Positions 32,715-56,059 of a stretch of DNA of 64,000 nt are shown piece by piece. Within the stretch, counting starts at the first letter, position 1. Each line of letters opens with the position of its first letter. The notes beneath the pieces were generated by a model. It was not told the origin of the DNA. It did no database searches and saw only the letters and a program-made list of their open reading frames with translations. Source of the stretch: an uncultured Syntrophaceae bacterium (GTDB lineage Bacteria > Desulfobacterota > Syntrophia > Syntrophales > UBA6807); contig CAZGAK010000006.1 in the NCBI GenBank assembly GCA_964523565.1, positions 4,589-68,588 of the forward strand, given 5' to 3'. A program made the translations under genes and the position numbers.

Positions 32715-32736
32715 AGCCTTCTCCCTTTGCAAAAAA

Positions 32737-34404: not shown

Positions 34405-34440
34405 TTTTTTCTCCTCCTTTTTTGATTGCCTTGGGTTAAA

Positions 34441-36441: not shown

Positions 36442-36686
36442 ACTTATCTCCTTTTCCATAATTATAGAGATGTTATGCGTTTAAAATCCTGACAATTTCA
36501 ATTAGGACACAGCTTTTCGCAGATGTACTCAGATCACTTTTTCAGGAATCCTGACAATCTGCCTGCCTTTTTAAATGCGGAGCATATTTAACCTGGACAT
36601 TTATCCGCGGTCGATTAAAAATAGAATAAATCTTGAGAAGCCGCCCCGCCGCCACGGCAGGGCGCTTTCTCACCAGACTTACTTTA

Positions 36687-38342: not shown

Positions 38343-38398
38343 GATTTTTCCTCCTTTTTTGTCTGATCTTAACTCGTATGAGCTCCCCATAAAATGCA

Positions 38399-38451
38399 TT
38401 CGTAAAAGTCGCAAGAGTTGCCTTGCCCTGCCTTTCCTTAACTTTTACGAA
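38399..38451. mobile_element. Minimal MITE remnant (CGTAAAAGT family)
   Basis: TTCGTAAAAGT ... ACTTTTACGAA perfect 11-bp inverted repeat. Confidence 0.6.
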
Positions 38452-38520
38452 ATTGCCATCCCCAAATAACCTCCTTTCTGAATTATTATTAGCGCCCTCT
38501 TACGTCTTCCAAATTATTTC

Positions 38521-39660
38521 CTATAGCCCCATCATCCTTCCAACGATAACCTTCATGACTTCCGTTGTCCCCGCGAAAATCGGTATAACCCGAACATCCC
38601 TTGCAAACCTGCATATGGGATATTCTTCCATATATCCGTAACCGCCGTGAAGCTGTACGCAGTGGTAGGCAACGCGATTGGCCATCTCCGGAATCCAGGC
38701 CTTGGCCATGGAGACTCGCTGGACAATATCTTTGCCGGCAATATAATCACCGATAAGAGAATCGATGAACGTTCTTCCCAGTTCAATCTCGGTGGCCATT
38801 TCCACAATCTTGAATGTATTGTGCTGTAACGAACTGACAGGCTTTCCAAATATCATTCTTTCCTTGCAGTATGTAACGGTCATATCGAGCATGGCCTCCG
38901 CCATGGACTGAGCCATAATCGATGCAATAAGCCTCTCCCCCTGGAGTTTCTGCATTAGATAATAAAAGCCTTTGCCTTCTTCACCGAGAAGATTGGAAAC
39001 AGGAACGGCGCAATCCTCAAAAATAAGCTCTGCCGTATCCTGGCTGTGAAACCCCATCTTCTTTAGATTCTGCCCCTTTGTAAACCCGGGTGTACCGTCT
39101 TCAACACATACAAGACTGATTCCCTTGGTGCCGGCCGTCGTATCAGTTTTAACGACAACAATCACCAGATCACAGTGTATTCCGATAGAGATAAATGTCT
39201 TCTGCCCGTTAATTACATATTCGTCCCCTTCTCTTATTGCTGTCGTGCGGACAGCAGCTAAATCCGAACCGGTACCGGGTTCCGTCATGGCAATAGCCGT
39301 AATAATATCTCCGGAAGCGCAACCGGGAAGCCACCTCATCTTCTGCTCTTCATTTGCGAAACTGTGGATGTAGGGAACAATTATATCGCTGTGTAATCCG
39401 GCCAAAAGACCATGAGCGCCAACATAGGTGAGCTCTTCGTTGATGATTACGGAGTATTCAAAACCCACACCTGATCCACCATATTTTTCTTCCAGCCACG
39501 GGCAGAGGAAGCCATTTTCACCCATTTTCTTCCACATTTCCTTAGGTATGATCCCGTCTTCTTCCCACTGTTCTATAAACGGTGTTACCTCTTTATGAAT
39601 AAACTTCTTAAAGGCATCGCGAAAAATATCATGTTCTTCACTGAATAACTCTCTTCTCAT
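38521..39660 (-). CDS. Acyl-CoA dehydrogenase (LCAD-like)
   Basis: AMTEPGTGSD, NGQKTFI, QLHGGYGY and IFAGT. Confidence 0.93.
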   Translation of the reverse strand: MRRELFSEEHDIFRDAFKKFIHKEVTPFIEQWEEDGIIPKEMWKKMGENGFLCPWLEEKYGGSGVGFEYSVIINEELTYVGAHGLLAGLHSDIIVPYIHSFANEEQKMRWLPGCASGDIITAIAMTEPGTGSDLAAVRTTAIREGDEYVINGQKTFISIGIHCDLVIVVVKTDTTAGTKGISLVCVEDGTPGFTKGQNLKKMGFHSQDTAELIFEDCAVPVSNLLGEEGKGFYYLMQKLQGERLIASIMAQSMAEAMLDMTVTYCKERMIFGKPVSSLQHNTFKIVEMATEIELGRTFIDSLIGDYIAGKDIVQRVSMAKAWIPEMANRVAYHCVQLHGGYGYMEEYPICRFARDVRVIPIFAGTTEVMKVIVGRMMGL

Positions 39661-39692
39661 TTTTTCAGCTCCTTCTGGCGAATGTATTAAAA

Positions 39693-40913
39693 TCACACTT
39701 TAAGGATAACAGCTTCACCCTGGGCAAGCCCTCCGCAAATGGCGGCAACACCGTATCCACCTCCGCGTCTTCTAAGTTCATGGGCCAATGTCATCGTAAT
39801 TCTGGCAGCACTGGATCCTACGGGATGACCAAGAGCTATAGCGCCACCATTGACATTCGTTTTTCCCTTAAGCTCTTCCCATTTTTTCTCGTCTCCGTTG
39901 GCAAGGATTTTTGTGGAAACAAGAGGCATTGCGGCAAAGGCTTCATTAATCTCAATGAGATCCATGTCATCAATCGTCATGCCCGCAGTATCCAGAGCCT
40001 TCTGTACCGACTGTGCCGGAATCGTGCATATGTATCGTGGACCAGCGGCGGCACATACAGAGGTAACGACAGTGGCCAGTGGTTCCAGCCCCCTATTTTC
40101 TGCCTGCTCTCTCGTCATAATAAGAAGAGCGCTGGAACCGGCGCTGATGGGAGGAGCATTGCCCGCTGTTATTGTGGGACTTCCATATATCGGTTTAAGC
40201 CTTGCCAACGCTTCTATAGAAGTGTTCTCACGAATACACTCGTCCTTCTCAATAACAACCGGATCGCCTTTCCTTTGAGGAATTACGACAGGCATGAGTT
40301 CTTCTCCAATTTTTATTTTCCCGTCTAAATAGGCCTTTGCAGCAAGTTTATGACTTCTCGCTGCCCATTCATCCTGCATTTCCCTTGTTACATCATATTC
40401 AACAGCCACTTCACCTGCATCCACGGCAATTGTATTGAACCCCATGGCATCGTAGCCCAGATAAAAGAGAGGATCTATCAATTTGACATCCCCCAATCTT
40501 CTTGCCCATCTTACCCCGGGAGCCAGATGAGGACATCTGGGCATATTTTCCGATCCTACGGCCATTGCAACTTCTAATTCTCCCGCCCTGATGCCGCGTA
40601 TGCCAAGGCGTAAGGCTGTCAGAGAAGAACAGCAAGCCCTATCTATTGATAGCGAAATGTTTTCTCCTGGAAATCCAGCCAGGAGACTCGCCTGTCTCCC
40701 CGGGACATCAGTTTCCAGAGCAAATTCGGCAGGCAAACAACTGCCATAATTGATTTCGTCAACTTCCTCCGGTTTGACACCCACCCTCTCAATCACCTCT
40801 TTCATGACCATAACCCCGAGTTTGATGCTCGGTATATCCTTCATTGCACTGTCGAACCTGCTGAAGGGTGTTCTCACAGCACTTACTATAACGATATCAT
40901 CCTTGCTTTCCAT
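39693..40913 (-). CDS. Acetyl-CoA acyltransferase (canonical thiolase)
   Basis: RTPF, RACCSS nucleophile region, NEAF, GHPVG and CGG; the longer ORF start lies inside a repeat element. Confidence 0.92.
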   Translation of the reverse strand: MESKDDIVIVSAVRTPFSRFDSAMKDIPSIKLGVMVMKEVIERVGVKPEEVDEINYGSCLPAEFALETDVPGRQASLLAGFPGENISLSIDRACCSSLTALRLGIRGIRAGELEVAMAVGSENMPRCPHLAPGVRWARRLGDVKLIDPLFYLGYDAMGFNTIAVDAGEVAVEYDVTREMQDEWAARSHKLAAKAYLDGKIKIGEELMPVVIPQRKGDPVVIEKDECIRENTSIEALARLKPIYGSPTITAGNAPPISAGSSALLIMTREQAENRGLEPLATVVTSVCAAAGPRYICTIPAQSVQKALDTAGMTIDDMDLIEINEAFAAMPLVSTKILANGDEKKWEELKGKTNVNGGAIALGHPVGSSAARITMTLAHELRRRGGGYGVAAICGGLAQGEAVILKV

Positions 40914-40969
40914 ATCTTTCATATCTCCTTTTTCGGTCTCGTCACTCTCAGATTCATCACAAATGATAG

Positions 40970-41116
40970 TTAAAAGCTTTGAATAATTACAGCCCAAGTC
41001 ATTGCGAGAAGCAAAGTGACGAAGCAATCTGTTTTGTTGTCAATAAGTTATAGATTGCCGCGTCAGCCGAGGGCCGACTCGCAATGACAACACGCGGCTT
41101 TGTGCAAACCTTTAAA
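40970..41116. mobile_element. MITE/REP-like palindromic element
   Basis: GTCATTGCGAG...GCAATCT...AGATTGC...CTCGCAATGAC hairpin inside weak TIRs (TAAAAGCTTTGAATAA / TGTGCAAACCTTTAA). Confidence 0.7.
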
Positions 41117-41136
41117 GTTTACGGACAGTTATGTTT

Positions 41137-41904
41137 TTATTTTGCCTGCATCCTGATGGAACCATCGAGCCTGATCACTTCACCATTCAGCATGGGGTTC
41201 TCGATAATATGCCGGGCTAACTGAGCATATTCTGAAGGTCTCCCGAGACGTTGCGGGAAAGGAACCATTTTCCCCAGGGCATCACGCACACTTTCAGGCA
41301 ACTGAGCGAGCATAGGCGTGTCAAATATACCGGGATTGATCGTGCAACACCTGATCCCGTACTCGGCACACTCCCTGGCTACGGGGAGGGTCATACCCAC
41401 GACACCAGCCTTGGACGCACTGTACGCAGGCTGCCCAACCTGGCCATCGGTGGCAGCCGCAGAGCCGGTATTAACAATGACACCTCTTTCACCCTCATCA
41501 TTCGGGGTATTGTTTACCATCTGCTCAACAGCATATCTGATGACCCTCATCGTACCGATCAGATTTAACTGCACTACTTTCTCAAACATAGCCATAGACA
41601 TGGGGCCTTTTCTGCCTATAATCTTCTCTGCAACACCAATCCCGGCACAATTAACAACAACATTAATACTACCGAAGGTATCAACCGCCTTATTTACTCC
41701 CGCCTGAACACTCTCATCACTGGTTACATCGGTCTTAACAAACACTACATTCTCGCCAAGCTCCTTTACCAATGCTTCACCTTTGTCCGCTTGAACATCA
41801 AAGATAGCGGCGCGTCCCCCACCATCCACTATACTTCGTACACAAGCTTCTCCCAATCCCGATGCACCACCAGTTACAATTGCCATACTGTCTGCTACGT
41901 TCAT
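41137..41904 (-). CDS. SDR 3-hydroxyacyl-CoA dehydrogenase type II (HSD17B10-like)
   Basis: TGGASGLG, NCAGI, YSASK, PGIFDTPML and LNGEVIRLDG. Confidence 0.92.
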   Translation of the reverse strand: MNVADSMAIVTGGASGLGEACVRSIVDGGGRAAIFDVQADKGEALVKELGENVVFVKTDVTSDESVQAGVNKAVDTFGSINVVVNCAGIGVAEKIIGRKGPMSMAMFEKVVQLNLIGTMRVIRYAVEQMVNNTPNDEGERGVIVNTGSAAATDGQVGQPAYSASKAGVVGMTLPVARECAEYGIRCCTINPGIFDTPMLAQLPESVRDALGKMVPFPQRLGRPSEYAQLARHIIENPMLNGEVIRLDGSIRMQAK

Positions 41905-41958
41905 AAACCTCCTCCTTTATTGTTTGTATGATTTTTTATAAAAAATAAGCTCAGCTGA

Positions 41959-43149
41959 CTATACACATCCTCTCCGGCCCAATGATTCTTCTAATTCAGC
42001 CATCCCTCTTAGCTTCTCAATAACCTCTTTCAAAACTTCAGTCGTATAGTTTATCTCTTCCAGAGTATTTTCCCGCCCCAGGCTAATCCTTACAGTGCCT
42101 TTGGCTATGTTTCGCGGCACACCTAACGCAGAAATGACATGAGAGATCTCTATTGAATCGGAAGTACAGGCAGAACCGGCAGAAATTGCGATTCCCTTAT
42201 TATCCATTTCTCGAACGATAGATTCTGCTTCAATACCCTCAATAGATATGTTCAAAACATGGGGTAGCCTCTTTTCTGGATGGCCGTTTACAAGAATATC
42301 AGGGATTTCTCCCGAAATCCGCGTTTGCAGGTGGTCTCGCAATTTTCTCAAATTATCCATCTGAGAGGCACATTCTTTTTCTGCTATTTCACAGCCCTTG
42401 CCGAAACCTGCAATGGCCGCAACGTTCTCTGTTCCATGTCGGAGGCCTCTCTCCTGATGCCCTCCATACAGGATGGGATTTATCTCCGTACCCTTTCTGA
42501 TATACAGGGCACCTATGCCCTTCGGACCATACATCTTGTGGCCGGAAAGAGAAAGCAAGTCCACGTCAAGGTGATTGACGTCTACCTGAATCTTCCCGAC
42601 TGCCTGAACTGCATCGGTATGAAAAATAATTTTTCTCTCTTTCGAAATAGCCGCAATCTCCAGGAGAGGTTCAATAGTCCCTGTTTCATTGTTTGCGTGC
42701 ATGATACTGATAAGAATCGTCTTATCAGAGATCGCCTCCTTAACATCTTCAGGATCAACAAGCCCGTTTGGGTCTACCGGAAGATATGTAACTTCACAGC
42801 CTTTCCGCTCCATGTATTCACAGGTGTTCAAAACGGCATGATGCTCAATGGCAGAGGTTATGATATGATTCACTTTCTTTTCAGATGCATGCGAGACTCC
42901 CCGAATAGCAAGGTTGTCAGCCTCCGTACCGCCGCTCGTAAATACAATTTCTTCTGGCGTGGCTCCGATAAGATGGGCAACTTTTTCTCTCGCTTCATCT
43001 AACGCTTTTCTCGCATCCTGTCCAAAGGCATGTATACTGGAAGGATTGCCATAGAAATCCTTGAAGTATGGAAGCATTGTTTCCATGACCTCAGGGTGAA
43101 CAGGAGTTGTTGCACAGTGATCAAGATAAATTCGCTTTATTTCAACCAT
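41959..43149 (-). CDS. Cysteine desulfurase (IscS/NifS group I)
   Basis: YLDHCATTP, FTSGGTE, EHHAV, DAVQ, SGHK and SAGSACTS. Confidence 0.93.
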   Translation of the reverse strand: MVEIKRIYLDHCATTPVHPEVMETMLPYFKDFYGNPSSIHAFGQDARKALDEAREKVAHLIGATPEEIVFTSGGTEADNLAIRGVSHASEKKVNHIITSAIEHHAVLNTCEYMERKGCEVTYLPVDPNGLVDPEDVKEAISDKTILISIMHANNETGTIEPLLEIAAISKERKIIFHTDAVQAVGKIQVDVNHLDVDLLSLSGHKMYGPKGIGALYIRKGTEINPILYGGHQERGLRHGTENVAAIAGFGKGCEIAEKECASQMDNLRKLRDHLQTRISGEIPDILVNGHPEKRLPHVLNISIEGIEAESIVREMDNKGIAISAGSACTSDSIEISHVISALGVPRNIAKGTVRISLGRENTLEEINYTTEVLKEVIEKLRGMAELEESLGRRGCV

Positions 43150-44137: not shown

Positions 44138-45136
44138 TCACCCAAGCGTTTCTCCAAGGGCCAACCGACATAAATCGCTTATCATGTAAGTCTTCAATCC
44201 CGCTTCGTCACATTCATATGAGAGCGCATCCAGGCACATGGGACAGAGGAAGATCATCGCCTCGGCATCGTTATACTTTGCATCCTGGATATTTATATCC
44301 TGATACTCCGGAAACTTGGTACCCCGCCTTAAAATGCCTTTCAAATCCTGTCCACAGCATAAGGAATCCAGTCTGTCATATTTCCTCGCTACTCTTTCTA
44401 CACCGATCAACTTGAAAATTTCATCCAGCATCGGTTCCTTCCATGGCGTTAACCTGGAGGCACACGGTCTTTGATAGGCTACTTTCATATTTAAAAACTT
44501 AACATCTTTTTTATGGTTTTTTAGATAATTTAAGAGGTATTCGAAGATATGAATCGGCTTGAAAGTAAGTTCAATACCGTACTTTGGAGCAATACCAGCC
44601 ATAAGAGAATAACAATCATCATGCATAAAGATAATCTCATCGACACCTAAGGACGCATATTTATTCACTAATAACTGGGTACCTTCACGCATAATCGTTT
44701 CATTGCCCAGATGCGGGAAAATGACGTTGCAGAAAAAGTGACGCCCTTTAACGACGCTTAGTCCGTCAAACAGCTTTCCTTGAATGGGAAAAGGCATATT
44801 TGATCCAATGGTGCAGAGAGATATTACAGGCTCCCTCACTTCAGGGGGTTTAAACTCTCCTTTCGGTGCAAAGTTCTTCTGAAAAGCAGACAGTATTTTC
44901 GGATTTGTGTAGTCACCCAATTCCTCCAATCTCTCAAGAATCAAGTCAAACGGTTTCGCTCCTTTTGTACAGTATTCGTTGCAGGCAAAACAGGTGATAC
45001 ATTCTCTTAGCCAGTCTACCCTTTCACCATTAACCAGTCGTTCAAACTCACGGGCACCTTCCTCCTGATCAAAATCGATATACATGCATTTTGCCAGACA
45101 ATCGCCACAAAAATCGCATTTCAATTCATGAAACAT
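44138..45136 (-). CDS. Fe-S oxidoreductase with two [4Fe-4S] motifs and a CCG (cysteine-rich) domain
   Basis: CDFCGDCLAKC, CITCFACNEYC, YQRPC, LCCG and CPMC. Confidence 0.85.
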   Translation of the reverse strand: MFHELKCDFCGDCLAKCMYIDFDQEEGAREFERLVNGERVDWLRECITCFACNEYCTKGAKPFDLILERLEELGDYTNPKILSAFQKNFAPKGEFKPPEVREPVISLCTIGSNMPFPIQGKLFDGLSVVKGRHFFCNVIFPHLGNETIMREGTQLLVNKYASLGVDEIIFMHDDCYSLMAGIAPKYGIELTFKPIHIFEYLLNYLKNHKKDVKFLNMKVAYQRPCASRLTPWKEPMLDEIFKLIGVERVARKYDRLDSLCCGQDLKGILRRGTKFPEYQDINIQDAKYNDAEAMIFLCPMCLDALSYECDEAGLKTYMISDLCRLALGETLG

Positions 45137-45190
45137 CTTATACCGTCTCCTTCTATGTATTCTGGAAAGAAAAAACAATGATTCATAACT

Positions 45191-46339
45191 TTACAATCCC
45201 AAGATATCCCGGGCGATAATCATAATTTGAATTTCATCCGTTCCACCGCCTATCTGCTGTAATTTCGCATCGCGCATCATCCTTTCAACGGGAAATTCTT
45301 TCATATATCCGTAGCCGCCCAGGATCTGGACCGCTTCCGTCGTGATTTTCATGGCAGTTCTTGCCGTGTAGAGTTTCGCATATGAAGCTATCAAGTTCAT
45401 ATCCCTGTGTAATCCCTTATCGGCCATGGCCGCACCTTTGTATGTAATAAGGTGTGATAGTTCAATTTCCATGGCCATATCAGCAAGTTTGGCCTGAATA
45501 AGCTGAAAAGAAACAATCGGTTTACCAAACTGAACTCTCTCTTTCGCATATTTGAGTGCACATTCATAAGCTCCTCTTGATAATCCGAGCGACATGGCAC
45601 CCATGCACACCCTCTCGGTGTTCAAACCGCTCATTAAAACGAGGGCGCCACTATTTTCTTTACCGAGGAGGTTTTTTGCAGGTACCTGACAGTCTTCGAA
45701 GATCAGCTCTCCCGTGGGAGAACCGCGCCATCCCATTTTTTCAAATTTCTTTCCCCTTGAAAAGCCGGAAAACTCTTTTTCAACGATAAATGCAGACACG
45801 CCGCGGGCACCTTTTTCCATATCTGTCTTCGCATAGATGACGAAGACATCACCGACGGGCCCGTTTGATATAAAAATTTTCGAACCATTCAGAATATAAG
45901 AATCTCCCTTTTTATCCGCCCGAAGCCTCATTGACATCACATCAGATCCGGCTGACGGTTCGGTCATGGCGAGGCCCCCTACCTTTGTTCCTTCACAGAG
46001 TGGGGGCAGATACTTTTTCAACTGCTCTTCATTGGCGTTTCTCCTGATATTATCTATACAAAGACATGCATGAACCCCCCACGAAGCCGCTGTTGACAGA
46101 CAGGCGACAGAAAGTTCCTCGGTAACGATGCACATTTCGGTGTATCCCGCACCGGCACCGCCGTAATCGACGGGTGCAGTTATACCCAGCAGTCCCATGT
46201 CTCTTAATTTACTGAAACTCTCCGTGGGAAACCGTTCGTCCCTGTCAATTTCATATGCTAAAGGGGCCACCTCTTTTTCAGCAAACGTTCTTATTGTGTC
46301 CCTTAACATCTTTTGTTCTTCGGTAAATTCCAGCATCAT
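45191..46339 (-). CDS. Acyl-CoA dehydrogenase (isovaleryl-CoA dehydrogenase-like)
   Basis: GLAMTEPSAGSDVMSM, GSPTGELIFED, LMSGLNTER and QILGGYGY. Confidence 0.9.
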   Translation of the reverse strand: MMLEFTEEQKMLRDTIRTFAEKEVAPLAYEIDRDERFPTESFSKLRDMGLLGITAPVDYGGAGAGYTEMCIVTEELSVACLSTAASWGVHACLCIDNIRRNANEEQLKKYLPPLCEGTKVGGLAMTEPSAGSDVMSMRLRADKKGDSYILNGSKIFISNGPVGDVFVIYAKTDMEKGARGVSAFIVEKEFSGFSRGKKFEKMGWRGSPTGELIFEDCQVPAKNLLGKENSGALVLMSGLNTERVCMGAMSLGLSRGAYECALKYAKERVQFGKPIVSFQLIQAKLADMAMEIELSHLITYKGAAMADKGLHRDMNLIASYAKLYTARTAMKITTEAVQILGGYGYMKEFPVERMMRDAKLQQIGGGTDEIQIMIIARDILGL

Positions 46340-46464
46340 ACATGCCCTCCACGTCACAAAGCAAGAGAGAGAAGGAGTATGCCGGGGCACGCTCCATCTC
46401 TCTTCCCTTCACCGTTTTTCCTGATTAACACGACTGTTCCTAAGTACCTTTCACAGGGCCTTAA

Positions 46465-47799
46465 TTAAAATATATTCTTCCTCAGTAATCCCATCTCCCG
46501 GGCTGCCTTTGTCAGGTCGTCCCTGAAGTCGGGATGCGCTATACTGATCAACGCCTCTGCCCGTTCAGGTTCGGTTCGGCCGTAGAGATCGGCAACACCG
46601 TACTCTGTCACGACATAGCCCGTATAATGACGGGGGACAGTAACACGTGAACCCGTCGGCAAGGCAGGTACAATCCTTGACCGTGTGCCCTTTATAGCTG
46701 TTGACGGAACCAGGTTAATGGCGCGTCCGCCCGGTGACCAGAAAGCCCCGACGACAAAATCAAGCTGTCCGCCTGTACCGCTCCGCATACGGGTTCCATA
46801 TGACTCGGAGTTAATCTGTCCGCACAGGTCGATCTCCACAGACCCGTTAACCGCAACCACATTATCTTCCTGGGCTATGACCGAAATGTTATTGGCGTAA
46901 TAGGTAGATCGCCATTCACACATGGGGTTATTAGCAAGCCAATCGTAAAGTTCCTTGTCCCCCATGGTAAATGCCAGGAGAACCTTTCCCGGATTGACTT
47001 TTTTATAATTACAGGTAACGACACCTTTCTCAACCAGATCATGGATTCCCGCAGGGGCCATCTCCGTATGGATGCCCATATCTTTCAACCCTGACTCCAA
47101 GAGCAGTTTGCTGATCATCGCCGGCACGGCACCGATTCCAACCTGCAAGCAGTCTCGATCCTTGAGCAGTGTCACAACGTTTTGCGCCATTTTCATCTCT
47201 ACATCCGATGCCTGCGGCGTTGGTACCGGAGGCATGGGATTCGGATTCTCCACAAAAGCGTCAAACATGGAAACATGGAAATTCGTCTCACCAAATGTCC
47301 TCGGCATCTGTTCATTGATCTCGACGATAAGATAATCACATTGTTCCATCAATGTCGCCGTATAAAATGTATCGAGACCCAGATTTACATACCCGTGTTC
47401 ATTCGGCGGCGTGGCCTGCATGACCATCCCCATTCGACGGGGATATACGCGGGCCCGATGGGGCATCTTGATCCCGATATCCGAACTCTGGCATGGCCAG
47501 AAATTTGCCCACTCACTATCGGCCAACGCCTGCTGATGCGGCATAGGTGAATAGAATGCCGGTATCAGATTGAAGGTATCTCTGCACTCCGGTTGAAAAA
47601 TCTTGTACGGTCTCAGCACAAGTGCAAAATTGTAGTCCACATCGCTTAGTTCATCTTTCCGGTCTGCAATAGCATCCATGATCAGATTGGTTGGCTGTCC
47701 CAGACACAGCGGTGTCCAGAACCGATCACCCGATTTCACAATTTTCGCTGCTTCTTCTGCCGACATTAACTTGCTTTTGTAATATTCTTTCCAACTCAT
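46465..47799 (-). CDS. Acyl-CoA:carboxylate CoA-transferase (4-hydroxybutyrate CoA-transferase/acetyl-CoA hydrolase family)
   Basis: [27 protein letters not shown] and IAHPDFR. Confidence 0.92.
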
Positions 47800-47883: not shown

Positions 47884-48345
47884 TTAAGCCGGTTCAAAAT
47901 ACTTAATATCCAGTACATGACCCTTTCTATCGTCATTCCATACTGCCTTTACTTTCATCCCATTTTTAACTGTCTTTCTTACGAGATCAAAATCAGTAAG
48001 ATCAAAACCACCCACTAAATGGAGAAAATCTACATCAGTTCCGTCCAGTCTGATCAACGCACCTATAAAAGGTGGTTTAATAGGCTGACCAAAATAACTG
48101 TAATTAACGTAACTCCACGCGGTCAGCGTTCCTTCCTGAGCTGCTTCTACCCACTCATCGGTATCGACGAAGCAACGGGGGCAGAAGCTCCTCGCCGGCA
48201 CGAGGACCCTCCCGCATTTCGAACATTTTGTACCGTATATGATTTCATTTTCCATACCTTCGAAGAATTTAGTCCATGTCGCACCATAGGCCAATTCATA
48301 TGGAAGCCTGATCTCAGTTTTTAACGTCTTAAATTCTTTTGCCAT
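47884..48345 (-). CDS. DUF35 Zn-ribbon/OB-fold protein
   Basis: GTKCSKCG..VPARSFCPRC; follows two SCP2-type thiolase genes. Confidence 0.92.
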   Translation of the reverse strand: MAKEFKTLKTEIRLPYELAYGATWTKFFEGMENEIIYGTKCSKCGRVLVPARSFCPRCFVDTDEWVEAAQEGTLTAWSYVNYSYFGQPIKPPFIGALIRLDGTDVDFLHLVGGFDLTDFDLVRKTVKNGMKVKAVWNDDRKGHVLDIKYFEPA

Positions 48346-48366
48346 GATTCTATATCCTCCCCTTCG

Positions 48367-49536
48367 TTATAGTTCTGATCCGACAATCATAATCCCGTTA
48401 AACTGATCGACACCACCCATGGCGTGACTCAAGGCCGTTTTCGCACCCGGAATCTGGTGATCCCCGGCCTTATCCATAACCTGCAGGGCTGCTTCAGCCG
48501 TTCTGATGAGCCCGGTCGCACCGATCGGATTTGTGCATAATGTTCCGCCAGACGGATCACAGGGTAATTCTCCGTCTCTCGCAAATGTTCCCTTCAAAAC
48601 CAGGTCGGGAGCTTCTCCGAGACCGCAGAATCCGAAGCACTCATAAAAAATCATTTCCTGGAATGTGAAAGGATTATATACCTCGGCAACATCCAGTTCC
48701 TTCCGCGGATCTTTGATACCCGCCATGTCATATGCCTGCTGCGCCGCCCCGACCGCACTCTGCCAGACGGCTTTATCGCTGTCACCGAAGTAATATTCTT
48801 CACCTCTATATCCGACACCTTTGACCCAGGCCACCTTGTTCAGGCCCAGTTTTTTTACCATCTTATCCGAAGCAAACAAAACTGCACAGGCGCCATCTGA
48901 ATTCGGACATACATCGAGAAGCCTAACCGGATAGGTAATAATCCTCGCGGTCTTTACATCTTCCATGGACACTCTTATCTTTATGTGGGCATACGGATTA
49001 TCAAAGGCACTGTCATGGTGGGTCACCGAAATAAATGCCGCCGCATCTCTCACTTTTTCTTCGTCCAGATTGTAGCGAACACTCCACATCTGGGATTGCA
49101 TGGAAAAAACGCCCGGAGCACCGGCAATAAAATATCTCTGATAGAAAGGATCGGCAACTGTTGTCATCGTTGCCTGACTGTCGCCTTCGTTCATCTTTTC
49201 ATGACCCACTGCCAGCACCAGATCAGCCATGCCCGATGATACCCAGTAATATGCCGTATGAGCTATTGACACTCCCGTGGACCCGCAGGTCTCGGTTTTC
49301 AGAATCGGTTTGCCCGCCGCCTTCATGGCATCGGCAAAATAAAAGTGGGTAAGTGCTACACCTTCCATCATAGAAGGCATCGTCCCCGAAACTACGCCAT
49401 CAATATCATCAGGGGTCAGTCCGGTTTCTTCATATACCCGCACAACTGCTTCACGAACCAGATCCGGATAACATACGTCCATTCTCCTCCCGTGGTTCGT
49501 CTGTCCAACCCCTATAATTGCAACTGGTCTACCCAT
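48367..49536 (-). CDS. SCP2-thiolase-like protein, Ltp3-like
   Basis: GVGQT, PSMMEGV...ADAMKAAGKP, CPNSDGA, AEVYNPF and PSGG..TNPIGATG; lacks the canonical thiolase histidines. Confidence 0.85.
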   Translation of the reverse strand: MGRPVAIIGVGQTNHGRRMDVCYPDLVREAVVRVYEETGLTPDDIDGVVSGTMPSMMEGVALTHFYFADAMKAAGKPILKTETCGSTGVSIAHTAYYWVSSGMADLVLAVGHEKMNEGDSQATMTTVADPFYQRYFIAGAPGVFSMQSQMWSVRYNLDEEKVRDAAAFISVTHHDSAFDNPYAHIKIRVSMEDVKTARIITYPVRLLDVCPNSDGACAVLFASDKMVKKLGLNKVAWVKGVGYRGEEYYFGDSDKAVWQSAVGAAQQAYDMAGIKDPRKELDVAEVYNPFTFQEMIFYECFGFCGLGEAPDLVLKGTFARDGELPCDPSGGTLCTNPIGATGLIRTAEAALQVMDKAGDHQIPGAKTALSHAMGGVDQFNGIMIVGSEL

Positions 49537-49548
49537 ATTGGTTACCTC

Positions 49549-50691
49549 CTAATTGCCTAAAATCGCAACAGCGTGGCACTGACCGGCGAAACCATGTGTC
49601 CCATGAGCCAAAGCTGTTTTTACTTCTTTATCGACCTGGCGTTCCCCTGCTTCACCCCGTAATTGCAAAGTTGTTTCAACAACCCGTTGAAGTCCACGTG
49701 AAACATATGGATTATTCGCCAGAACACCTCCTGACGGATTAACCGGCAGGTCACCATCTTTTTGTGTTGCCCCGCTGTCGATAAATTCGCCACCTTTGCC
49801 GGTACCGCAGAATCCAAGATCCTCACACCACAGCAATTCCTGGAAGGCGTAGGGTTCCGTGATCTCTGCGAGATCTATTTCCTTCCGAGGGTCGGAAATA
49901 CCGGCCATTTTGTAGGCCCTCTCTGCTGCATTCTTCAACTGCCCGTCAAGTAGATCTCTATCACCGAGATAATAGCTGTCTAATGAGCTTCCATAACCCT
50001 TAAACCAGACCGGCTTGTCCGTTAACTCCCTGGCCTTTTTCTCCGATGCCAGAAGAACCGCAACGATCCCCTCCGATTTCGGAGCGACCTGCATTGCAGT
50101 CAAAGGGTCAATGATCCTTTCGGAGTTGAGAATATCCTCAACGGTGTATCTCCCCTTTTTGTGAGCATAAGGGTTCCCCAGAGCATTCTGCAAATTTTTC
50201 ACTGCCACTTTTGCGCACTGCTCCTCCGTAATTCCATAACGCTCCATGTAAAGTCTCATCTGAAAAGCGGCCGCCATGGTTTCCTGCAGACCAAGACCTC
50301 TCGTGTAAAAGGGATCGGTGTACATCAACGTGCAGGCATCATTCTCCGGATTCTCCGAACCTTTGCAGAGAGAAATAATCAATGCAGTATCGTAGTGTCC
50401 CGTGAGAATTCTCATGACACCGTAAAAGAAGGCAAACAGTGATTCACCATCCTGACGTGAAGCATTTTTTAAAAATGCCCCCGTTGTCTCCCAGTAATAA
50501 GAATTGGCACACGATATTCCTCCATGAAAAATATCTGACGAGGCACTGATGATGGTTCCCAGATCATCTCTGGTTAAACCCACCTTATCCAGGACTTCCT
50601 TTGTGACCACATAAGCCTGGTCATAAAAGTTATCCTTGGATTCAGCGCCGGCATTTTGTGCCACTGCTACAATTGCAACTTTTCCCGGCAT
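49549..50691 (-). CDS. SCP2-thiolase-like protein, Ltp4-like
   Basis: SASSD, ILTGHYDTAL..KGSE, AEITEPYAFQE and NPSGGVLANNP; no canonical catalytic Cys/His. Confidence 0.85.
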   Translation of the reverse strand: MPGKVAIVAVAQNAGAESKDNFYDQAYVVTKEVLDKVGLTRDDLGTIISASSDIFHGGISCANSYYWETTGAFLKNASRQDGESLFAFFYGVMRILTGHYDTALIISLCKGSENPENDACTLMYTDPFYTRGLGLQETMAAAFQMRLYMERYGITEEQCAKVAVKNLQNALGNPYAHKKGRYTVEDILNSERIIDPLTAMQVAPKSEGIVAVLLASEKKARELTDKPVWFKGYGSSLDSYYLGDRDLLDGQLKNAAERAYKMAGISDPRKEIDLAEITEPYAFQELLWCEDLGFCGTGKGGEFIDSGATQKDGDLPVNPSGGVLANNPYVSRGLQRVVETTLQLRGEAGERQVDKEVKTALAHGTHGFAGQCHAVAILGN

Positions 50692-50722
50692 ACCAACACT
50701 TCCTTTCTTAATTTATTATTTA

Positions 50723-50865
50723 TGACAGTTTCGTAAAAAGTCAAACTCAGCGAATCTGTCATTTCGACCACAGGGAGAAATCTTATTTTTTCAATGTGTT
50801 ACGGTCTAAAGATTTCTCGTTTCACTCGAAATGACAAGCTATTGAGACTTTTTACGAACGCATCA
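50723..50865. mobile_element. MITE of the CGTAAAAAGTC family
   Basis: TTCGTAAAAAGTC ... GACTTTTTACGAA TIR core; internal TGTCATTTCGA...TCGAAATGACA and GAGAAATCT...AGATTTCTC stems. Confidence 0.8.
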
Positions 50866-50909
50866 TTTATACATTCTTTCCCAAGAATCCTTTTCAGTCA
50901 TTCAATTTG

Positions 50910-51365
50910 CTATGCAGGTTTTCTGCCGACGATTATCTTCGTTACGTAGACGATTGCATCCTCACCGCGTTGATTTTTAATGACATTCTCATGCTCAATT
51001 ATTCCGCGCTTGTCATCTTTCGCCGTTAGATTTTTAATCTTGACCACGCAATGTATCGTATCGCCGATTTTTATGGGCGCCGTAAACCGGACAGATTCAA
51101 TGCCATAAAAAGCTATAAAGCTCTTCGGAAGCATTACATAAGGCCCCAGACGAAACATCAAAGCGCTTCCAACAACCAGCCCCAGGAATCCATGAGCTAT
51201 CCGTTCCTTAAAGGGTGTCTTCGCCGCATATTCAACGTTCGTGTGAAGCTCGTGCCAATCTCCCGTAAAGGCCGAAAACATTACTATGTCCGTTTCTGTT
51301 ATCGTTCTTCCCGGTGACACAAAAACTTCCCCCTCTTTGTAGTCTTCGAAGTAGAGTTTCTCCAA
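50910..51365 (-). CDS. MaoC-family (R)-enoyl-CoA hydratase
   Basis: YFED, GRTITETD, TGDWHELH (D-x4-H dyad) and RIAHG; TTG start after AGGAGG (ORF track start 51374). Confidence 0.9.
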   Translation of the reverse strand: MEKLYFEDYKEGEVFVSPGRTITETDIVMFSAFTGDWHELHTNVEYAAKTPFKERIAHGFLGLVVGSALMFRLGPYVMLPKSFIAFYGIESVRFTAPIKIGDTIHCVVKIKNLTAKDDKRGIIEHENVIKNQRGEDAIVYVTKIIVGRKPA

Positions 51366-51430
51366 ACAAGTCACCTCCTTTTTTTCCCTTTCAATACATT
51401 AAAAGAGTTTTTCTTTTTTGTTTCGCTTAT

Positions 51431-52591
51431 TTACATTTTCAGAAGTTCACGAGCGATAACAAGACGCCGGATTTCGGAAGTTCCTGCACCGATCGTGCCC
51501 AATTTTGCGTCCCGCCAGAATCGTTGGACAGGGTATTCCATGCAGTAACCGTAACCACCATGGATCTGGACAGCCTCCTCGCATATCTTGATTGACATTT
51601 CAGCCGCAAAGAGTATTGCTGCAGACGATATCTGGTGGACCTCCGTTCCTTTTCCACCCTTCTCTACTTCACCGGCCATCATTGCCGCTTTGTAACACAG
51701 CAAACGCGAAGCTTCGATCTGCGTATACATGTCGGCTAATTTTCCCTGAATAAACTGGAAAGAAGCGATCGGTCTGCCAAACTGAACCCTCTCCTGTGAA
51801 TATTTCAGGGCCAACTCAAAAGCACCCTCAGCTATGCCGAGTGCATAGGTGGAGTAAAAGGCTCTTTCTACATCAAGGCCACCCATCATAACGGCAATTC
51901 CTCTGTTCTCCGCACCAAGAATATTCTCCTCTGAAATTATGCAGTCCTCCAAAATCAGCTCCGCGGTCTGAGAGCCCCTGTTACCCACTTTATCCAGTTT
52001 CTTTGATACGGAAAATCCGGGAATTTGTGTTTCCAGAATGAAAGCGGTAATTCCTTTCGGACCTGCATCCTTATCGGTCCTCGTATAAAGAACTATCGTA
52101 TTTGCATCAGGACCATTGGTGATGAACATTTTCGTGCCATTCACGACGTAATGATCACCTTCTCGTCTAGCCGTTGTCTGTATGCTTACGGCATCGGATC
52201 CCGCATTTGGTTCTGTAAGTCCCAGAGCTCCTACATGTTCTCCGGTACATAATTTGGGTAAATACTTCGTTTTTTGTGCCTCATTTGCATTCGTGTTCAG
52301 ATTATTACAGCACAGGTTTGCGTGGGCTCCCCATGAAAGCGCAATCGCAGGACACACCCTTGCCAGTTCTTCACATGCTAAAGAGGCAGACAGAATATCG
52401 GCGCCGGCACCACCATATTCGGGATCAACGGTTATACCGTTAATACCCAGATCCCCCAGCTTTCTCCACATTCCTTCCGGCCATTCATCCGTTTGATCCA
52501 TTTCCTCGGCAACATGCTGCAACTCCTTTGCCGCAAAATTTGCAACACTATCTTTTAACATTCTGTGTTCATCACTCAGATTAAAATCCAC
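51431..52591 (-). CDS. Acyl-CoA dehydrogenase (isovaleryl-CoA dehydrogenase-like)
   Basis: SWGAHANLC, EPNAGSD, NGTKMFITNGP, GLDVER and IGAGTSEIRR. Confidence 0.92.
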   Translation of the reverse strand: MDFNLSDEHRMLKDSVANFAAKELQHVAEEMDQTDEWPEGMWRKLGDLGINGITVDPEYGGAGADILSASLACEELARVCPAIALSWGAHANLCCNNLNTNANEAQKTKYLPKLCTGEHVGALGLTEPNAGSDAVSIQTTARREGDHYVVNGTKMFITNGPDANTIVLYTRTDKDAGPKGITAFILETQIPGFSVSKKLDKVGNRGSQTAELILEDCIISEENILGAENRGIAVMMGGLDVERAFYSTYALGIAEGAFELALKYSQERVQFGRPIASFQFIQGKLADMYTQIEASRLLCYKAAMMAGEVEKGGKGTEVHQISSAAILFAAEMSIKICEEAVQIHGGYGYCMEYPVQRFWRDAKLGTIGAGTSEIRRLVIARELLKM

Positions 52592-52720: not shown

Positions 52721-52736
52721 AGCATAAACAATGCCA
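52721..52736 (-). promoter_or_regulatory. Sigma54 (-24/-12) promoter of the acyl-CoA catabolic operon
   Basis: Minus strand TGGCATTGTTTATGCT gives GG-N10-GC, 130 bp upstream of the first gene and divergent from a sigma54 activator. Confidence 0.8.
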
Positions 52737-52915
52737 CCCTCAACTGATGCATATTCATTAACTATTTCAAGGAAATAGTCGTTACGCTCTGTCAATTGCC
52801 TGTATTCAGGGGGGTCACTATATGGACACCAGTTATTATTTGGACAAATATTGACAGATTGAATCCTTTCATGTACACTCGCGCCTATCAACAAAACCCG
52901 GGGAGACCTAGACTA

Positions 52916-55900
52916 ATGGCAAAAGCTGACAGAGTTTTGTCTCAATTACCTGATGACGAAAAACGGTTCCTTTATAGCTTTATTGCCTTCCCTGATTTTT
53001 TCTCTGTGGACTGGTTTTCCGGTATGCCGGATTTCCTTCCATCAAAATTGATCTCTCTGATCTTAACATTGAATCGCGGGCAATGGATTATTCCGGAAGA
53101 AAAAAAGCCCGGATGTTACAAGTGGTCTAAAAAGTTCTCGCGGCAGGAGGTTATAAGTAAGATACCGGCCGAAGAAATGTCTCGATACTATCGAAACACT
53201 GTAGACATTCTTTCAAAGTACCTGCCGAACAGTGAGGAAAACACCCTGAAGATGGCCAATCAGTGTCTCCTTGCCGGCATAGAAACAACCGACCTGGATA
53301 TCATTTTCAAAGCGGCTCTCTCTGAAGAAAAAAACCATAAAATCTCGTCAGCCATAACACTGTATGATTCTCTTCTCGAATACATCGAAAGTCTCATTGT
53401 CAGTGAAAAAGTCGACCTTTCCAGCGATACGTGGTGTACATTTATCAGGACAATTGAACGTCGGGCGTCACTGTCTCTGTTTCATCCAAGCATCAAGAAG
53501 ATTAATCGATTTCTTTCCATGGCCCTCGATATGGCTATCCATCTCGGTGACAAGAGATCCCAGGCATCCCTGCAACTTCTTATAGGACAAAATTACTGGA
53601 TGTCATTCCAGCATGAAAAAGCCGTTCAACACTTTGACCTGGGCTGGAATATGATCAATGCAATAAAAGATGATAATTTATATAAACGGGGGTTGCAACT
53701 TCAGGGATTATCCTGTTGGATTAAAGGTAATTTTCGCGAAGCAATTCAGGCTTACGAGGAATCACTGGGAGAGCTTGATTCTATCTCAGATGATGATTTT
53801 ATCCTCCTTACGGCACTTCATCTCGCCCTCTGCTACACTCAGGTCGGGATGCCGCAGAGAGGATTAGGGATTACAGAGGCCATTGAACGTCAGGCAGAAA
53901 AAAACGAAAACTGGCCGCTGGTATCCCTGACGATGGCAACAACGGGAGTTATCTTCCTGGAAATCAGACAGCTAAAGAACAGTAAAACTTACTTCGAAAG
54001 GGCTCTTGAGCTTGCCAGAAGGGAAAACATACCCATGGCAAAAGTTATGTCCGGTATAGGTATGGCCAATATTGAATGTCTGGAAGGAAACTTCGATGTG
54101 GCATCCGAATATTTTAAGGTTCTTTGGAAACTGCGTAAGTCGAGCTGGTATCATACCCTCAACAGCTCTCATATTTTTGAAGCCGGCTATATGCTGCACA
54201 TTAAGGATGTCTCTCCCGTTGAACTCAGTCCGGTTATCAATTTTTTATATCAACTGAAAGAAGAAGACGTCAATCCCTTCATGTACAGCATTATCCGCAG
54301 ACACCAAATTCTGATATTAGAAGAAAACAGAACACCCGGCCAAAAGATAAAAGAACTGTTAAAGCTCGAAAAATCGGTCAAAAACAGTGGGGCAACTTTA
54401 GAGCTCGCAAAAATCAGGGTTGATCTTGCCAATCTTTTTGTTCAGACAAATAACTGGCAAAAGGCTGAATTTTACGGGAGAAAGGCATGGAAATTTTTAA
54501 AACCCATCGCCAAGGACGTTTATCCAGCACATCTCGAACATTTGATTCCCCATGACGATGTTACAAGAGAAGATCGATTGTTTGATCTTGTCATCGAAAT
54601 GGGTGAAGCATTAACGAACCAGGAAAATATCGAACGGCTTCTCACGAATATCATTACTTCAATATCACGCTTGACGGGGGCAGAAAGAGCAGCCCTCTTT
54701 ATCAAGGACGGGGCCCCCTCAGGTCTCGAAATGGTTGCTTCGAGAAACCTCGTCAAAGAACACGTCCTGGACGAAAGTTTCAAAAAAACACTCAATGCCA
54801 TCAAAGCCGCTGCCAATAGTAACGACGGCACAATCACTCAATACGAAATAAACAGACGCGACTCTGTTGATTTTCGCCATGTTATAATTGCACCGCTGAT
54901 TCTATCGGAAAACGTGATCGGTGTCCTCTATCAGGACAGCCGTTTTTTTTCGTTTGACACGAGTCCCGGCAAGATCAATCTTCTTTCAGCGTTGGCATCT
55001 CAAATTGCCGTATCAATTGACCGGGCACAGGCATACGATGAAATAGCACGCCTGAACAAAAGACTCATACAGGAAAATCTCTACTATATGGAAGAAAAGG
55101 AAGAATTCAGGCCTTTCGGTGAAATCATCGGTAACAGTCAGACTATTATAAACCTCCACCATCTTATACACAAAGTAGCTCCCACACAATCGACCGTTCT
55201 CATCTCCGGTGAGACAGGTGTCGGAAAAGAACTTGTGGCACGGGCAATCCATCGTGACAGCGCGAGACAAAACGGTCCCTTCATTAGAGTCAATTGCGCA
55301 GCGCTCCCTGATACGTTGATAGACAGTGAACTTTTTGGTCATGAAAAGGGTGCTTTCACGGGAGCGGTAAAAACCAAAGCCGGCCGGTTCGAACTGGCCA
55401 ACGAAGGTACCATTTTTCTGGACGAGGTATCGGAACTTCCCCCCTCAACACAGAGCAGACTGTTACGAATCCTCCAGGAAAAAGAATTTCAGCGTGTCGG
55501 AGGAACAACCACCCTTCATTCCGATTTTCGCCTCGTTACGGCCACAAATAAGGACCTGGGAAAAGAGGTCGCAAACGGAAAGTTCAGAGCGGATCTGTTC
55601 TACCGGTTGAATGTCTTTCCCGTAAGCGTCGCACCCCTCAGGGAAAGAAAAGAAGACATACCGCTTCTGGCAACTCATTTTCTCAATCTATTCTGTTCCC
55701 AGTACAATAAGCATTACTCGGGTATTCCCGAGTCTGAGATGGAAAAACTCATAACCTATTCCTGGCCGGGAAATATCAGGGAACTTTCCAACATGGTTGA
55801 GCGTGCCGTTATTTTAGGGGGTCCCGTAATCAGGTTCGCCGAATTGGAAAGCAAGAAGATTGCCGACGTAACCGACGATGAAGTCCTGGATCTTAAAGAT

Positions 55901-56059
55901 ATGGAGAAGATGCAGATCTTCAAGGCCCTGAAAAAGACCAATGGGAAAATCGGCGGCAAGAATGGGGCATCGGTTCTCCTGGGACTGAAAAGAACGACGC
56001 TCATCAACCGTATGAAAAGGCTCGGCATTACAGTAGAGAAAACCGCAACACGCCAATAA
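52916..56059 (+). CDS. Sigma54-dependent enhancer-binding activator (TPR-like N-terminus, GAF, AAA+, HTH)
   Basis: [42 protein letters not shown] and C-terminal HTH; GGGAG RBS before ATG 52916. Confidence 0.93.

Follow-up and report, generated by a model that had tools for sequence, protein, structure and literature searches.

A putative Ltp3/Ltp4-like thiolase-fold retro-aldolase encoded in an acyl-CoA degradation operon of an uncultured Syntrophaceae bacterium

We analysed a 64,000-nt stretch of DNA (hereafter the window) from contig CAZGAK010000006.1 of an uncultured Syntrophaceae bacterium and, within it, the region 47884-52591 on the minus strand. Here the genes of two adjacent thiolase-fold paralogues, named ThlA and ThlB, are followed by a gene for a DUF35 protein and preceded by genes for an acyl-CoA dehydrogenase (ACAD1) and a MaoC-type hydratase. 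Judging from sequence comparisons, we consider it on balance probable that ThlA, ThlB and the DUF35 protein make up a heteromeric retro-aldolase of the Ltp3/Ltp4 kind, acting within a 'dehydrogenase, (R)-hydratase, retro-aldolase' module. An aldolase-type reaction is the best-supported mechanism for this trio, the support coming from the residue pattern, from clade membership and from synteny. The same order of steps, dehydrogenation, hydration and retro-aldol cleavage, had been proposed in an initial annotation of this DNA. The core of that proposal is supported by a Tyr/Gly signature, by the clade and by synteny, but the linkage of the dehydrogenase and MaoC genes to the trio is seen in only a subset of related loci.

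All open reading frames of the window were scored against Pfam and NCBIfam. The five genes that the initial annotation had described are present, all on the minus strand, and Pfam confirmed their domains:

51431-52591, minus strand: ACAD1, acyl-CoA dehydrogenase of the isovaleryl-CoA dehydrogenase (IVD) type, 386 aa, with three acyl-CoA dehydrogenase Pfam domains
50910-51374, minus strand: MaoC, single-domain hot-dog enoyl-CoA hydratase, presumably (R)-specific, 154 aa; MaoC_dehydratas, 77.8 bits (cut-off 27)
49549-50691, minus strand: ThlA, thiolase-fold protein of the 'deletion' class, 380 aa; Pfam Thiolase_C_1 alone, 120.5 bits
48367-49536, minus strand: ThlB, thiolase-fold protein of the 'Gly/Tyr/Asn' class, 389 aa; Thiolase_C_1, 113.3 bits, and a partial Thiolase_N, 37.6 bits
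47884-48345, minus strand: DUF35 protein, 153 aa; zf-ChsH2 and OB_ChsH2_C domains, that is, a four-Cys zinc ribbon and an OB fold

Active-site residues of ThlA and ThlB

To compare catalytic positions we aligned 131 proteins, comprising representatives of the wider family, the close family of ThlB, ThlA itself and the canonical thiolase encoded on another contig (C11) of the same genome; pairwise HMMER alignments against solved SCP2-type and archaeal thiolases were run in addition. Both approaches agree with the earlier observation that neither thiolase-like protein keeps the catalytic set: the full Cys/His/Cys/His set is found neither in ThlA nor in ThlB, although one pairwise alignment of ThlB, taken up in the Discussion, differs at the nucleophile. 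The motifs that had been read by eye also hold in the 131-row alignment. The nucleophile loop of ThlB reads ETCGSTG, its Gly85 falling in the nucleophile column, and HDCF and GHP are replaced by YNPF and TNP, respectively. Tyr287 thereby takes the slot of the HDCF His (it aligns with the His of 6hsj) and Asn336 that of the GHP His. ThlA has TEPY for HDCF and NNP for GHP, together with a three-residue deletion at the nucleophile loop. The Cys of HDCF is missing from both proteins. With both His residues and the second Cys gone, canonical thiolysis by ThlB is unlikely.

The alignment resolves into three classes: canonical thiolases with the motifs E-x-x-C-x-S-G, HDCF and GHP; a 'Gly/Tyr/Asn' class that includes ThlB; and a class with the three-residue deletion that includes ThlA. 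The contrast between the first two is sharp. In the 41 rows of the ThlB clade, the column of Gly85 is Gly in 93%, that of Tyr287 is Tyr in 78% and that of Asn336 is Asn in 93%, whereas in the 31 canonical thiolases these columns are Cys, His and His, respectively, in 100%. Among the matches listed, the pattern Y-[ND]-P-F is kept in all 120 close ThlB homologues. In the class of ThlA the Tyr287 column is variable, which fits an inert partner. ThlB is the candidate catalytic aldolase subunit of the pair, and ThlA is probably its non-catalytic partner.

Phylogeny and structural models

A FastTree phylogeny of the 131 rows separates the canonical thiolases as a 40-row clade (support 100) from the remaining 91 rows, which form its sister group. 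ThlB lies within a 49-row clade (support 95), 37 members of which carry Gly/Tyr/Asn, and ThlA belongs to a group (support 92) made up of 34 rows of the deletion class. The ThlB clade also holds a true member of the NCBIfam family PRK08313 (P0132, 704.5 bits) with the corresponding motifs AG, YVPF and NP, and the ThlA class includes a PRK07937-like protein, which at 331 bits is below the cut-off of 419 for that model. We take PRK08313 and PRK07937 to be the models for mycobacterial Ltp3 and Ltp4. A literature search on the two model names found nothing.

AlphaFold2 (AF2) gave a model with a pLDDT of 92.6 for ThlB and one with a pLDDT of 91.7 for the canonical thiolase of the genome. A Foldseek search with the ThlB model recovered the SCP2/archaeal thiolase fold, archaeal thiolases being the best matches (6esq, TM 0.94). 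A search of the protein cluster atlas matched generic thiolase-domain clusters only, and many of the listed ThlB homologues are annotated as 'acetyl-CoA acetyltransferase'. Prediction of a complex of ThlA and ThlB with DUF35 as the partner gave a median score of 0.63, but a control in which ThlB was replaced reached 0.81, so that the score does not discriminate with respect to binding. The four Cys residues of the DUF35 protein are invariant in 17 homologues, and the protein is expected to be the scaffold subunit of the thiolase-fold pair.

Conservation of the locus and distribution

Close homologues of ThlB number 120 among the matches listed, at 72-100% identity; beyond them, identity drops to 59% for the next representative and to 43% for the following one. 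A synteny survey, which had been suggested along with the initial annotation, was carried out on 79 related loci with ThlB proteins 70-97% identical to ours, all of them from entries titled as metagenome-assembled genomes (MAGs) and mostly from Syntrophales/Syntrophaceae; the remaining loci bear the labels Desulfomonilia, Desulfarculia, Thermodesulfobacteriota and Bacillota. The ThlA-ThlB-DUF35 trio is kept in nearly all of these loci, and all of them come from uncultured anaerobes. Among the loci with enough flanking sequence to judge, ThlA is the immediate upstream neighbour of ThlB in 69 of 70, and DUF35 immediately follows ThlB in 72 of 74. Within the module, ThlB is the most strongly conserved gene. 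Downstream of the trio, a CoA-transferase is found in 22 of 53 loci and an acyl-CoA dehydrogenase in 36 of 53; two DUF35 genes are present in 16 of 53. A gene resembling a 3-hydroxyacyl-CoA dehydrogenase or a short-chain dehydrogenase/reductase (SDR) was detected in only 7 of the 79 loci, each time 6-9 kb from ThlB, by tblastn, which has limited sensitivity for SDRs. It is the constancy of the trio together with its rare linkage to a 3-hydroxyacyl-CoA dehydrogenase that leads us to read it as a retro-aldolase.

Across the order, the ThlB family occurs in 45 of the 151 genomes sampled (37 of the 117 high-quality ones). Its distribution is patchy by family, and two or three paralogues per genome are frequent. 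The more distant loci contain a second, paralogous ThlA/ThlB/DUF35 module. In tandem with the close homologue, such a second module, with its own DUF35 gene or genes and 31-45% identity to the pair of the window, is found in loci L041, L045, L049-L051, L057, L060, L063, L069, L075, L077-L079 and L081. In L081, the trio is accompanied by a protein with two SCP2 domains, a beta-keto-acid cleavage enzyme (BKACE), two adjacent acyl-CoA dehydrogenases and a pair of MaoC-type genes, a layout that recalls, by analogy, the steroid side-chain operons of actinobacteria.

Comparison with characterized systems

The closest parallel is offered by actinobacterial Ltp3/Ltp4. Like ThlA/ThlB, they are an adjacent pair of thiolase-fold paralogues with a neighbouring DUF35/OB-fold gene, and the PRK08313 member, taken above to represent Ltp3, belongs to the clade of ThlB and carries the same Gly / Tyr-x-Pro-Phe / Asn-Pro signature. 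There are also differences: ThlA and ThlB score below the cut-offs of PRK07937 and PRK08313; the hosts are strict anaerobes with small genomes (uncultured Syntrophales and relatives); and the partners are an IVD-type dehydrogenase, a small MaoC protein and a short-chain CoA-transferase instead of steroid genes. Excerpts of one report cite Ltp3/Ltp4 as aldol-lyases of C24-branched sterol side chains (PMC6593523). Our literature search found no in vitro characterization of this two-paralogue type.

Two thiolase-fold aldolases with solved structures allow a comparison at the level of residues. According to excerpts of PMC12329534, Ltp2 uses Tyr294 of its YDHF motif as the base and Tyr344 as the acid, and Sal uses Tyr302 (the catalytic base) and Cys304 of YDCY; the corresponding motif is YDCF in TbSLP and HDCF in SCP2 thiolases. 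The same source gives a Gly (Gly89) in Sal where thiolases have the nucleophilic Cys and proposes an equivalent Gly for Ltp2. As far as the alignments can tell, ThlB has both traits common to the two aldolases, a Tyr in the base slot and a Gly at the nucleophile position. The Ltp2-ChsH2(DUF35) complex (PDB 6ok1) shares with ThlB the fold, a DUF35 partner (a presumed one in the case of ThlB), the Tyr base and the Gly, and in its pathway, as here, an acyl-CoA dehydrogenase and a MaoC hydratase precede it. However, Ltp2 is a homodimer and not a paralogue pair, it has the acid Tyr344 where ThlB has Asn336 and YDHF where ThlB has YNPF, and it is distant by sequence (E 8e-18; Foldseek rank 26). The bile-acid aldolase Sal-Shy(DUF35) (PDB 9myr) likewise combines Gly at the nucleophile position, a Tyr base and a DUF35 partner, and its Gln352 places an amide where thiolases have the GHP His, as Asn336 does in ThlB by motif spacing. 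In contrast to ThlB, which has Pro289 there, Sal has an essential acid, Cys304 of YDCY; it is a homodimer, its DUF35 is fused to a hydratase, and its match to ThlB is distant (E 6e-15).

By overall sequence and structure, the closest systems are the benzoylsuccinyl-CoA thiolase BbsAB (7pxp) and the archaeal thiolase/3-hydroxy-3-methylglutaryl-CoA (HMG-CoA) synthase/DUF35 complex (6esq), which have the same fold and the DUF35 partnership. They keep Cys/His/His and carry out Claisen chemistry, whereas ThlA and ThlB lack the set, lie outside the thiolase clade and reach 108 and 150 bits against the BbsB model cut-off of 750. Functional analogues, finally, are HMG-CoA lyase and 3-hydroxy-3-isohexenylglutaryl-CoA (HIHG-CoA) lyase of the Liu/Atu routes, which convert a tertiary 3-hydroxyacyl-CoA to acetyl-CoA and a ketone, the type of reaction proposed here. 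They differ in having an unrelated TIM-barrel fold and carboxylated substrates, and they are separately encoded in this genome.

Dehydrogenases and hydratase

The label 'IVD-like' that ACAD1 had been given is a fair one. Its five best PDB matches are all isovaleryl-CoA dehydrogenases (395-368 bits; best non-IVD match, 348 bits), and alignment to human IVD (1ivh) and to 4kto reveals LD-x-ER (LDVER / LDLER) and IGAGTSE in common. Presumably, these motifs mark a catalytic Glu located on helix G, with the Glu376 typical of medium-chain acyl-CoA dehydrogenase lost. The IVD-type arrangement of the Glu leaves space for a branch at C3. A second acyl-CoA dehydrogenase further down the operon, ACAD2, likewise has isovaleryl-CoA dehydrogenases as its closest solved relatives. 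The MaoC protein matches 1q6w, the hydratase domain of PaaZ and the (R)-specific enoyl-CoA hydratase 5cpg. Inspected by eye, its sequence GDWHELH contains an Asp and a His, whose spacing we take to be that of the hydratase-2 motif.

Carboxylases elsewhere in the genome

The initial annotation had stressed that no biotin carboxylase is encoded in the window and had cast the whole route as carboxylase-independent. The former holds, as Pfam finds no biotin carboxylase in the 64 kb; the latter is not supported at the level of the genome, which encodes three carboxyltransferases, six HMGL-like matches and one ATP-grasp biotin carboxylase, as well as a Na+-pump beta subunit with a biotinyl carrier. 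Contig C24, at about 7526-12722, has a set of genes running in one direction whose products are a carboxyltransferase of 574 aa, a crotonase, an HMGL-like protein of 401 aa, a biotinyl carrier of 71 aa and, at 323 bits against an NCBIfam cut-off of 246, an HMG-CoA lyase; no ATP-grasp biotin carboxylase adjoins this cluster. It may represent a route of the Liu type for leucine or isovalerate, in which carboxylation would be Na+-coupled or of the transcarboxylase type and need not involve an ATP-grasp enzyme. A carboxyltransferase of the C24/C27 type occurs in 89 of the 151 genomes, namely in 41 of the 45 with ThlB and in 48 of the 106 without it, a comparison that is descriptive and not a test, since related genomes are not independent. 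This co-occurrence speaks against ThlA/ThlB replacing the carboxylase route. No hydantoinase-B-type gene, as would be used for acetone carboxylation, was found in the genome.

Several further genes were noted around these clusters. Downstream of the C24 cluster, at 15833-18472, the gene of a short-chain fatty acid transporter (SCFA_trans, 528 bits) precedes the only BKACE gene of the genome; BKACE genes are also found within paralogous ThlA/ThlB modules of other MAGs (L072 and L081). Contig C27, at about 8971-12558, carries a MaoC gene with a 557-aa carboxyltransferase and a 383-aa HMGL-like protein, adjoined on the opposite strand by a BaiCD-like flavoenzyme, and in a sister MAG (locus L072) the same MaoC and carboxyltransferase pair is located about 8 kb from the operon of a ThlB paralogue on one contig. 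On contig C11, at about 27800-34700, the genome encodes an archaeal-type set of its own, in which an acetoacetyl-CoA thiolase of archaeal type (630 bits; cut-off 403) neighbours a 499-aa HMG-CoA synthase that carries DUF35 as a C-terminal fusion; a 3-hydroxybutyryl-CoA dehydrogenase and two CoA-transferases of family III are also next to it.

Gene neighbourhood, promoter motif and transcripts

Beyond the five genes, the following features surround the trio:

52796-56059, plus strand: divergent sigma54-dependent activator with TPR_12, GAF_3, Sigma54_activat (235 bits) and HTH_8
52721-52736, minus strand: sigma54-type -24/-12 motif TGGCATTGTTTATGCT, GG-N10-GC (TGGCAT-N5-ATGCT), about 130 nt upstream of ACAD1
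46465-47799, minus strand: CoA-transferase of the acetyl-CoA hydrolase/transferase family (Pfam), butyryl-CoA:acetate CoA-transferase-like; TIGR03948, 315.8 bits, below the cut-off of 674.8
45191-46390, minus strand: ACAD2, second IVD-type acyl-CoA dehydrogenase, 49% identical to ACAD1
44138-45178, minus strand: HdrD-like Fe-S/CCG-domain oxidoreductase; weak Pfam matches, Fer4_10 at 22.6 bits (below cut-off) and CCG at 21.6 bits
43308-44171, minus strand: crotonase-family enoyl-CoA hydratase; ECH_1, 184.9 bits; PRK06142, 284.5 bits, below the cut-off of 308
41959-43149, minus strand: NifS/IscS-like cysteine desulfurase within the beta-oxidation cluster (Pfam)
41137-41904, minus strand: SDR (Pfam)
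32259-43149, minus strand: same-strand context by Pfam, namely the NifS-like protein, the SDR, a canonical thiolase, a third acyl-CoA dehydrogenase (ACAD3), an acyl-CoA synthetase, a FadB-like protein, another acyl-CoA synthetase and a thioesterase

The HdrD-like protein is likely the electron outlet for the system of acyl-CoA dehydrogenases and electron-transfer flavoprotein (ETF), the ETF genes being located beyond the divergent activator (Pfam). The true start of the activator is probably downstream of the TTG listed for it. In the related loci, the context genes at 32259-43149 show no linkage to the trio at comparable identity, the NifS-like gene excepted; in 13 of the 79 loci, a homologue of this gene comes after the trio or after the pair of CoA-transferase and ACAD2.

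The operon had been described as sigma54-controlled, and the promoter motif and the divergent activator are indeed both there. Of 64 related loci, 9 have a similar motif ahead of the module, the background rate being 0.0056 per 360 nt, and in many related loci an activator homologue is divergent from the module. The pattern is not enriched across the window as a whole (30 matches versus 25.8 expected). With this count close to chance, only the position of the motif and its recurrence in relatives carry weight. Searches with either Pfam domain did not find the sigma factor gene rpoN in this assembly, which is 96.8% complete, yet the gene is present in all nine other genomes of the family, and for this reason its absence here is probably an assembly gap.

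Lake-water metatranscriptome libraries contain 9-28% of the sampled words of the region. In the four libraries that were compared (13-28% of words), short contigs at 99-100% identity cover pieces of most genes of the cluster; the comparison used contigs only and so shows presence in RNA libraries but not ends, strand or levels, and uncovered bins are uninformative. Two details of these contigs deserve mention. At 41000-41029, the annotated 5' end of the canonical thiolase frame, one contig from each of the four libraries covers just about 30 nt, with unlike sequence on both flanks, one extra base after 41014 and a depth of 7-16, which is above that elsewhere. This suggests that a short element is common to another, more abundant sequence, and also that the long N-terminal extension of the thiolase frame is not real. 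In the 218-nt spacer between MaoC and ThlA (50692-50909, minus strand), which contains a sigma70-like promoter match (TTGACT-18-AATAAT at 50744-50715), contigs of two runs depart from the window sequence at 50786 and 50857; strain variation or an inserted repeat may account for this.

Discussion

In the scheme that we favour, ACAD1 would form a 2-enoyl-CoA and, being of the IVD type, should tolerate a branch at C3; the MaoC protein would then hydrate this product to a 3-hydroxyacyl-CoA. ThlA-ThlB-DUF35 would cut the C2-C3 bond of the latter without oxidation and without CoA, yielding acetyl-CoA (or propionyl-CoA) and an aldehyde or ketone. Catalysis would reside in ThlB, where Tyr287 could act as the general base on the 3-hydroxyl, the Gly85 backbone and Asn336 would hold the hydroxyl and the enolate, and Cys84 and Cys334 are candidates for the proton donor. 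ThlA would serve as an inert dimer partner and the DUF35 protein as a zinc-ribbon scaffold. The CoA-transferase encoded downstream could spend the released acetyl-CoA on activating the free acid. The expected substrate is a branched, short- to medium-chain acyl-CoA.

A number of observations weigh against a retro-aldolase of this kind. The family models are not satisfied: the best NCBIfam model for ThlB is PRK08313 at 373.3 bits, short of its cut-off of 514, and ThlA is below the cut-off of every NCBIfam model (PRK07937, 162.9 bits versus 419). Foldseek does not separate aldolases from thiolases, ranking Ltp2 26th and Sal 44th. By motif spacing, ThlB has neither of the known proton donors, since Pro289 stands at the position of Sal Cys304 and Asn336 at that of Ltp2 Tyr344. 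The ThlB clade contains no assayed enzyme, and the function of Ltp3/Ltp4 derives from genetics as cited in excerpts of PMC6593523. The linkage to the preceding steps is partial: of 58 loci, 25 have MaoC upstream, 29 an acyl-CoA dehydrogenase and 19 the two together. The remaining difficulty is Cys84, which adjoins the nucleophile column and, among the matches listed, is kept in 119 of the 120 close ThlB homologues.

Were Cys84 the nucleophile, ThlB would be an unusual but true thiolase or acyltransferase, and the operon a normal beta-oxidation set whose dehydrogenase is encoded outside it, the SDR at 41137-41904 being one possibility. One pairwise HMMER alignment, that with 7yvy, does set Cys84 on the nucleophile, although it opens a gap to do so, and in the AF2 model Cys84 appears as the first residue of the helix that bears the nucleophile in thiolases. 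According to DSSP, this helix begins two residues past the anchor Glu in ThlB versus five in the canonical thiolase; the local conformation of the nucleophile loop thus differs between the two models, and it does not place Cys84 relative to Gly85. In the 131-row alignment, however, Cys84 stands one column before the nucleophile, between the anchors Glu82 and Gly88 and without any indel, and in most of the wider clade of ThlB this column is Gly. ThlA and ThlB alike lack the two His residues and the Cys of HDCF. The SDR, FadB-like and canonical thiolase genes downstream on the same strand could complete such a set, but dehydrogenase genes are not syntenic with the trio (the 7 of 79 loci above), and the window has a canonical thiolase anyway. 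Taken together, we regard a Cys84-dependent thiolase as quite unlikely. Still less probable, in our estimate, is some other chemistry known from the thiolase fold, be it decarboxylation (TbSLP, weak, on malonyl-CoA), C-acyl transfer (PhlABC) or a non-catalytic scaffold role. PhlC, PhlB and TbSLP do appear among the sequence and fold matches, and ThlB shows no obvious proton donor for a retro-aldol reaction. However, the column occupied by Gly in ThlB holds Cys88 in PhlC, a residue that PhlC requires, Pfam finds no PhlA partner resembling ketoacyl synthase III in the operon, and the position of ThlB as the best-conserved gene of the module argues for an enzyme.

Two other explanations accept the retro-aldol chemistry and differ in what it would be used for. 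The initial annotation had put forward a carboxylase-independent route for beta-branched acids, isovalerate being one of those it named; in the specific version for isovalerate or leucine, isovaleryl-CoA would pass through 3-methylcrotonyl-CoA and 3-hydroxyisovaleryl-CoA to acetone and acetyl-CoA, replacing methylcrotonyl-CoA carboxylase and saving ATP. Two IVD-type dehydrogenases in the operon, a short-chain-type CoA-transferase and a small single-domain MaoC protein would suit such a route, as would a window devoid of biotin carboxylase in a genome with a single ATP-grasp one. As the literature search found no known 3-hydroxyisovaleryl-CoA lyase among the papers listed, the route would be new; no paper on isovalerate and methylcrotonyl-CoA in syntrophic metagenomes was found either. 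Yet the C24 carboxyltransferase/HMG-CoA lyase cluster and the Na+-pump beta subunit make a Liu-type route plausible, carboxyltransferases accompany ThlB instead of being replaced by it, and the acetone formed would meet no hydantoinase-B-type carboxylation gene found in the genome. Moreover, with acetate, acetone and 2[H] as products and the acetyl-CoA spent on activation, we would expect no ATP yield. This route therefore seems improbable to us.

Conversely, the trio might be a lyase that follows a carboxylation step and cooperates with the carboxyltransferases of the genome, in the manner of HMG-CoA/HIHG-CoA lyase or of what is proposed for Ltp3/Ltp4. The route for C24-branched sterols includes a carboxylation, and the aldol-lyase role cited for Ltp3/Ltp4, introduced above, concerns such side chains. 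The positive association of ThlB with carboxyltransferases and the operon of the ThlB paralogue in L072, about 8 kb from the MaoC and carboxyltransferase pair, point the same way. But co-occurrence may just mirror a common lifestyle among genomes that are not independent, and the C24 cluster has an HMG-CoA lyase of its own. There is no carboxyltransferase in the operon of the window, and among the 79 loci one was seen in L072 only, no tblastn query having been used for it. The gene order ACAD-MaoC-ThlA-ThlB itself suggests consecutive steps. Thus, a lyase acting after carboxylation also appears unlikely.

If the retro-aldolase reading is right, it may be extended, tentatively and with more doubt than confidence, to a general role. 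The trio might then be the core of a widespread anaerobic variant of beta-oxidation, in which a beta-branched acyl-CoA (iso-, isoprenoid- or sterol-derived) is converted via a tertiary alcohol to acetyl-CoA and a ketone, with no redox step and no thiolysis. The paralogous modules of the same lineages would then deal with one branch point after another along isoprenoid chains; some of these modules have two DUF35 genes, paired acyl-CoA dehydrogenases, paired MaoC genes, a beta-keto-acid cleavage enzyme and a protein with an SCP2 domain. Such a variant would explain how syntrophs remove the methyl branches that block ordinary beta-oxidation.

Thiolase-fold aldolases as such are already known; what would be new, if the sequence-based assignment is correct, is a heteromeric, Ltp3/Ltp4-like thiolase-fold lyase in strict anaerobes. 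As far as our literature search shows, thiolase-fold aldolases are biochemically known only from aerobic steroid degraders (Ltp2 and Sal). Here, a highly conserved ThlB (70-97% identity) recurs across uncultured syntrophs of one order (45 of 151 genomes), is linked to IVD-type dehydrogenases and is also represented in lake metatranscriptome libraries. If the proposed activity is true, the 'acetyl-CoA acetyltransferase' annotation of many homologues would be corrected. It would also provide a redox-free C-C cleavage step in the anaerobic breakdown of short branched acids or branched lipids, which in sediments, peat and digesters form a sink that is poorly understood.

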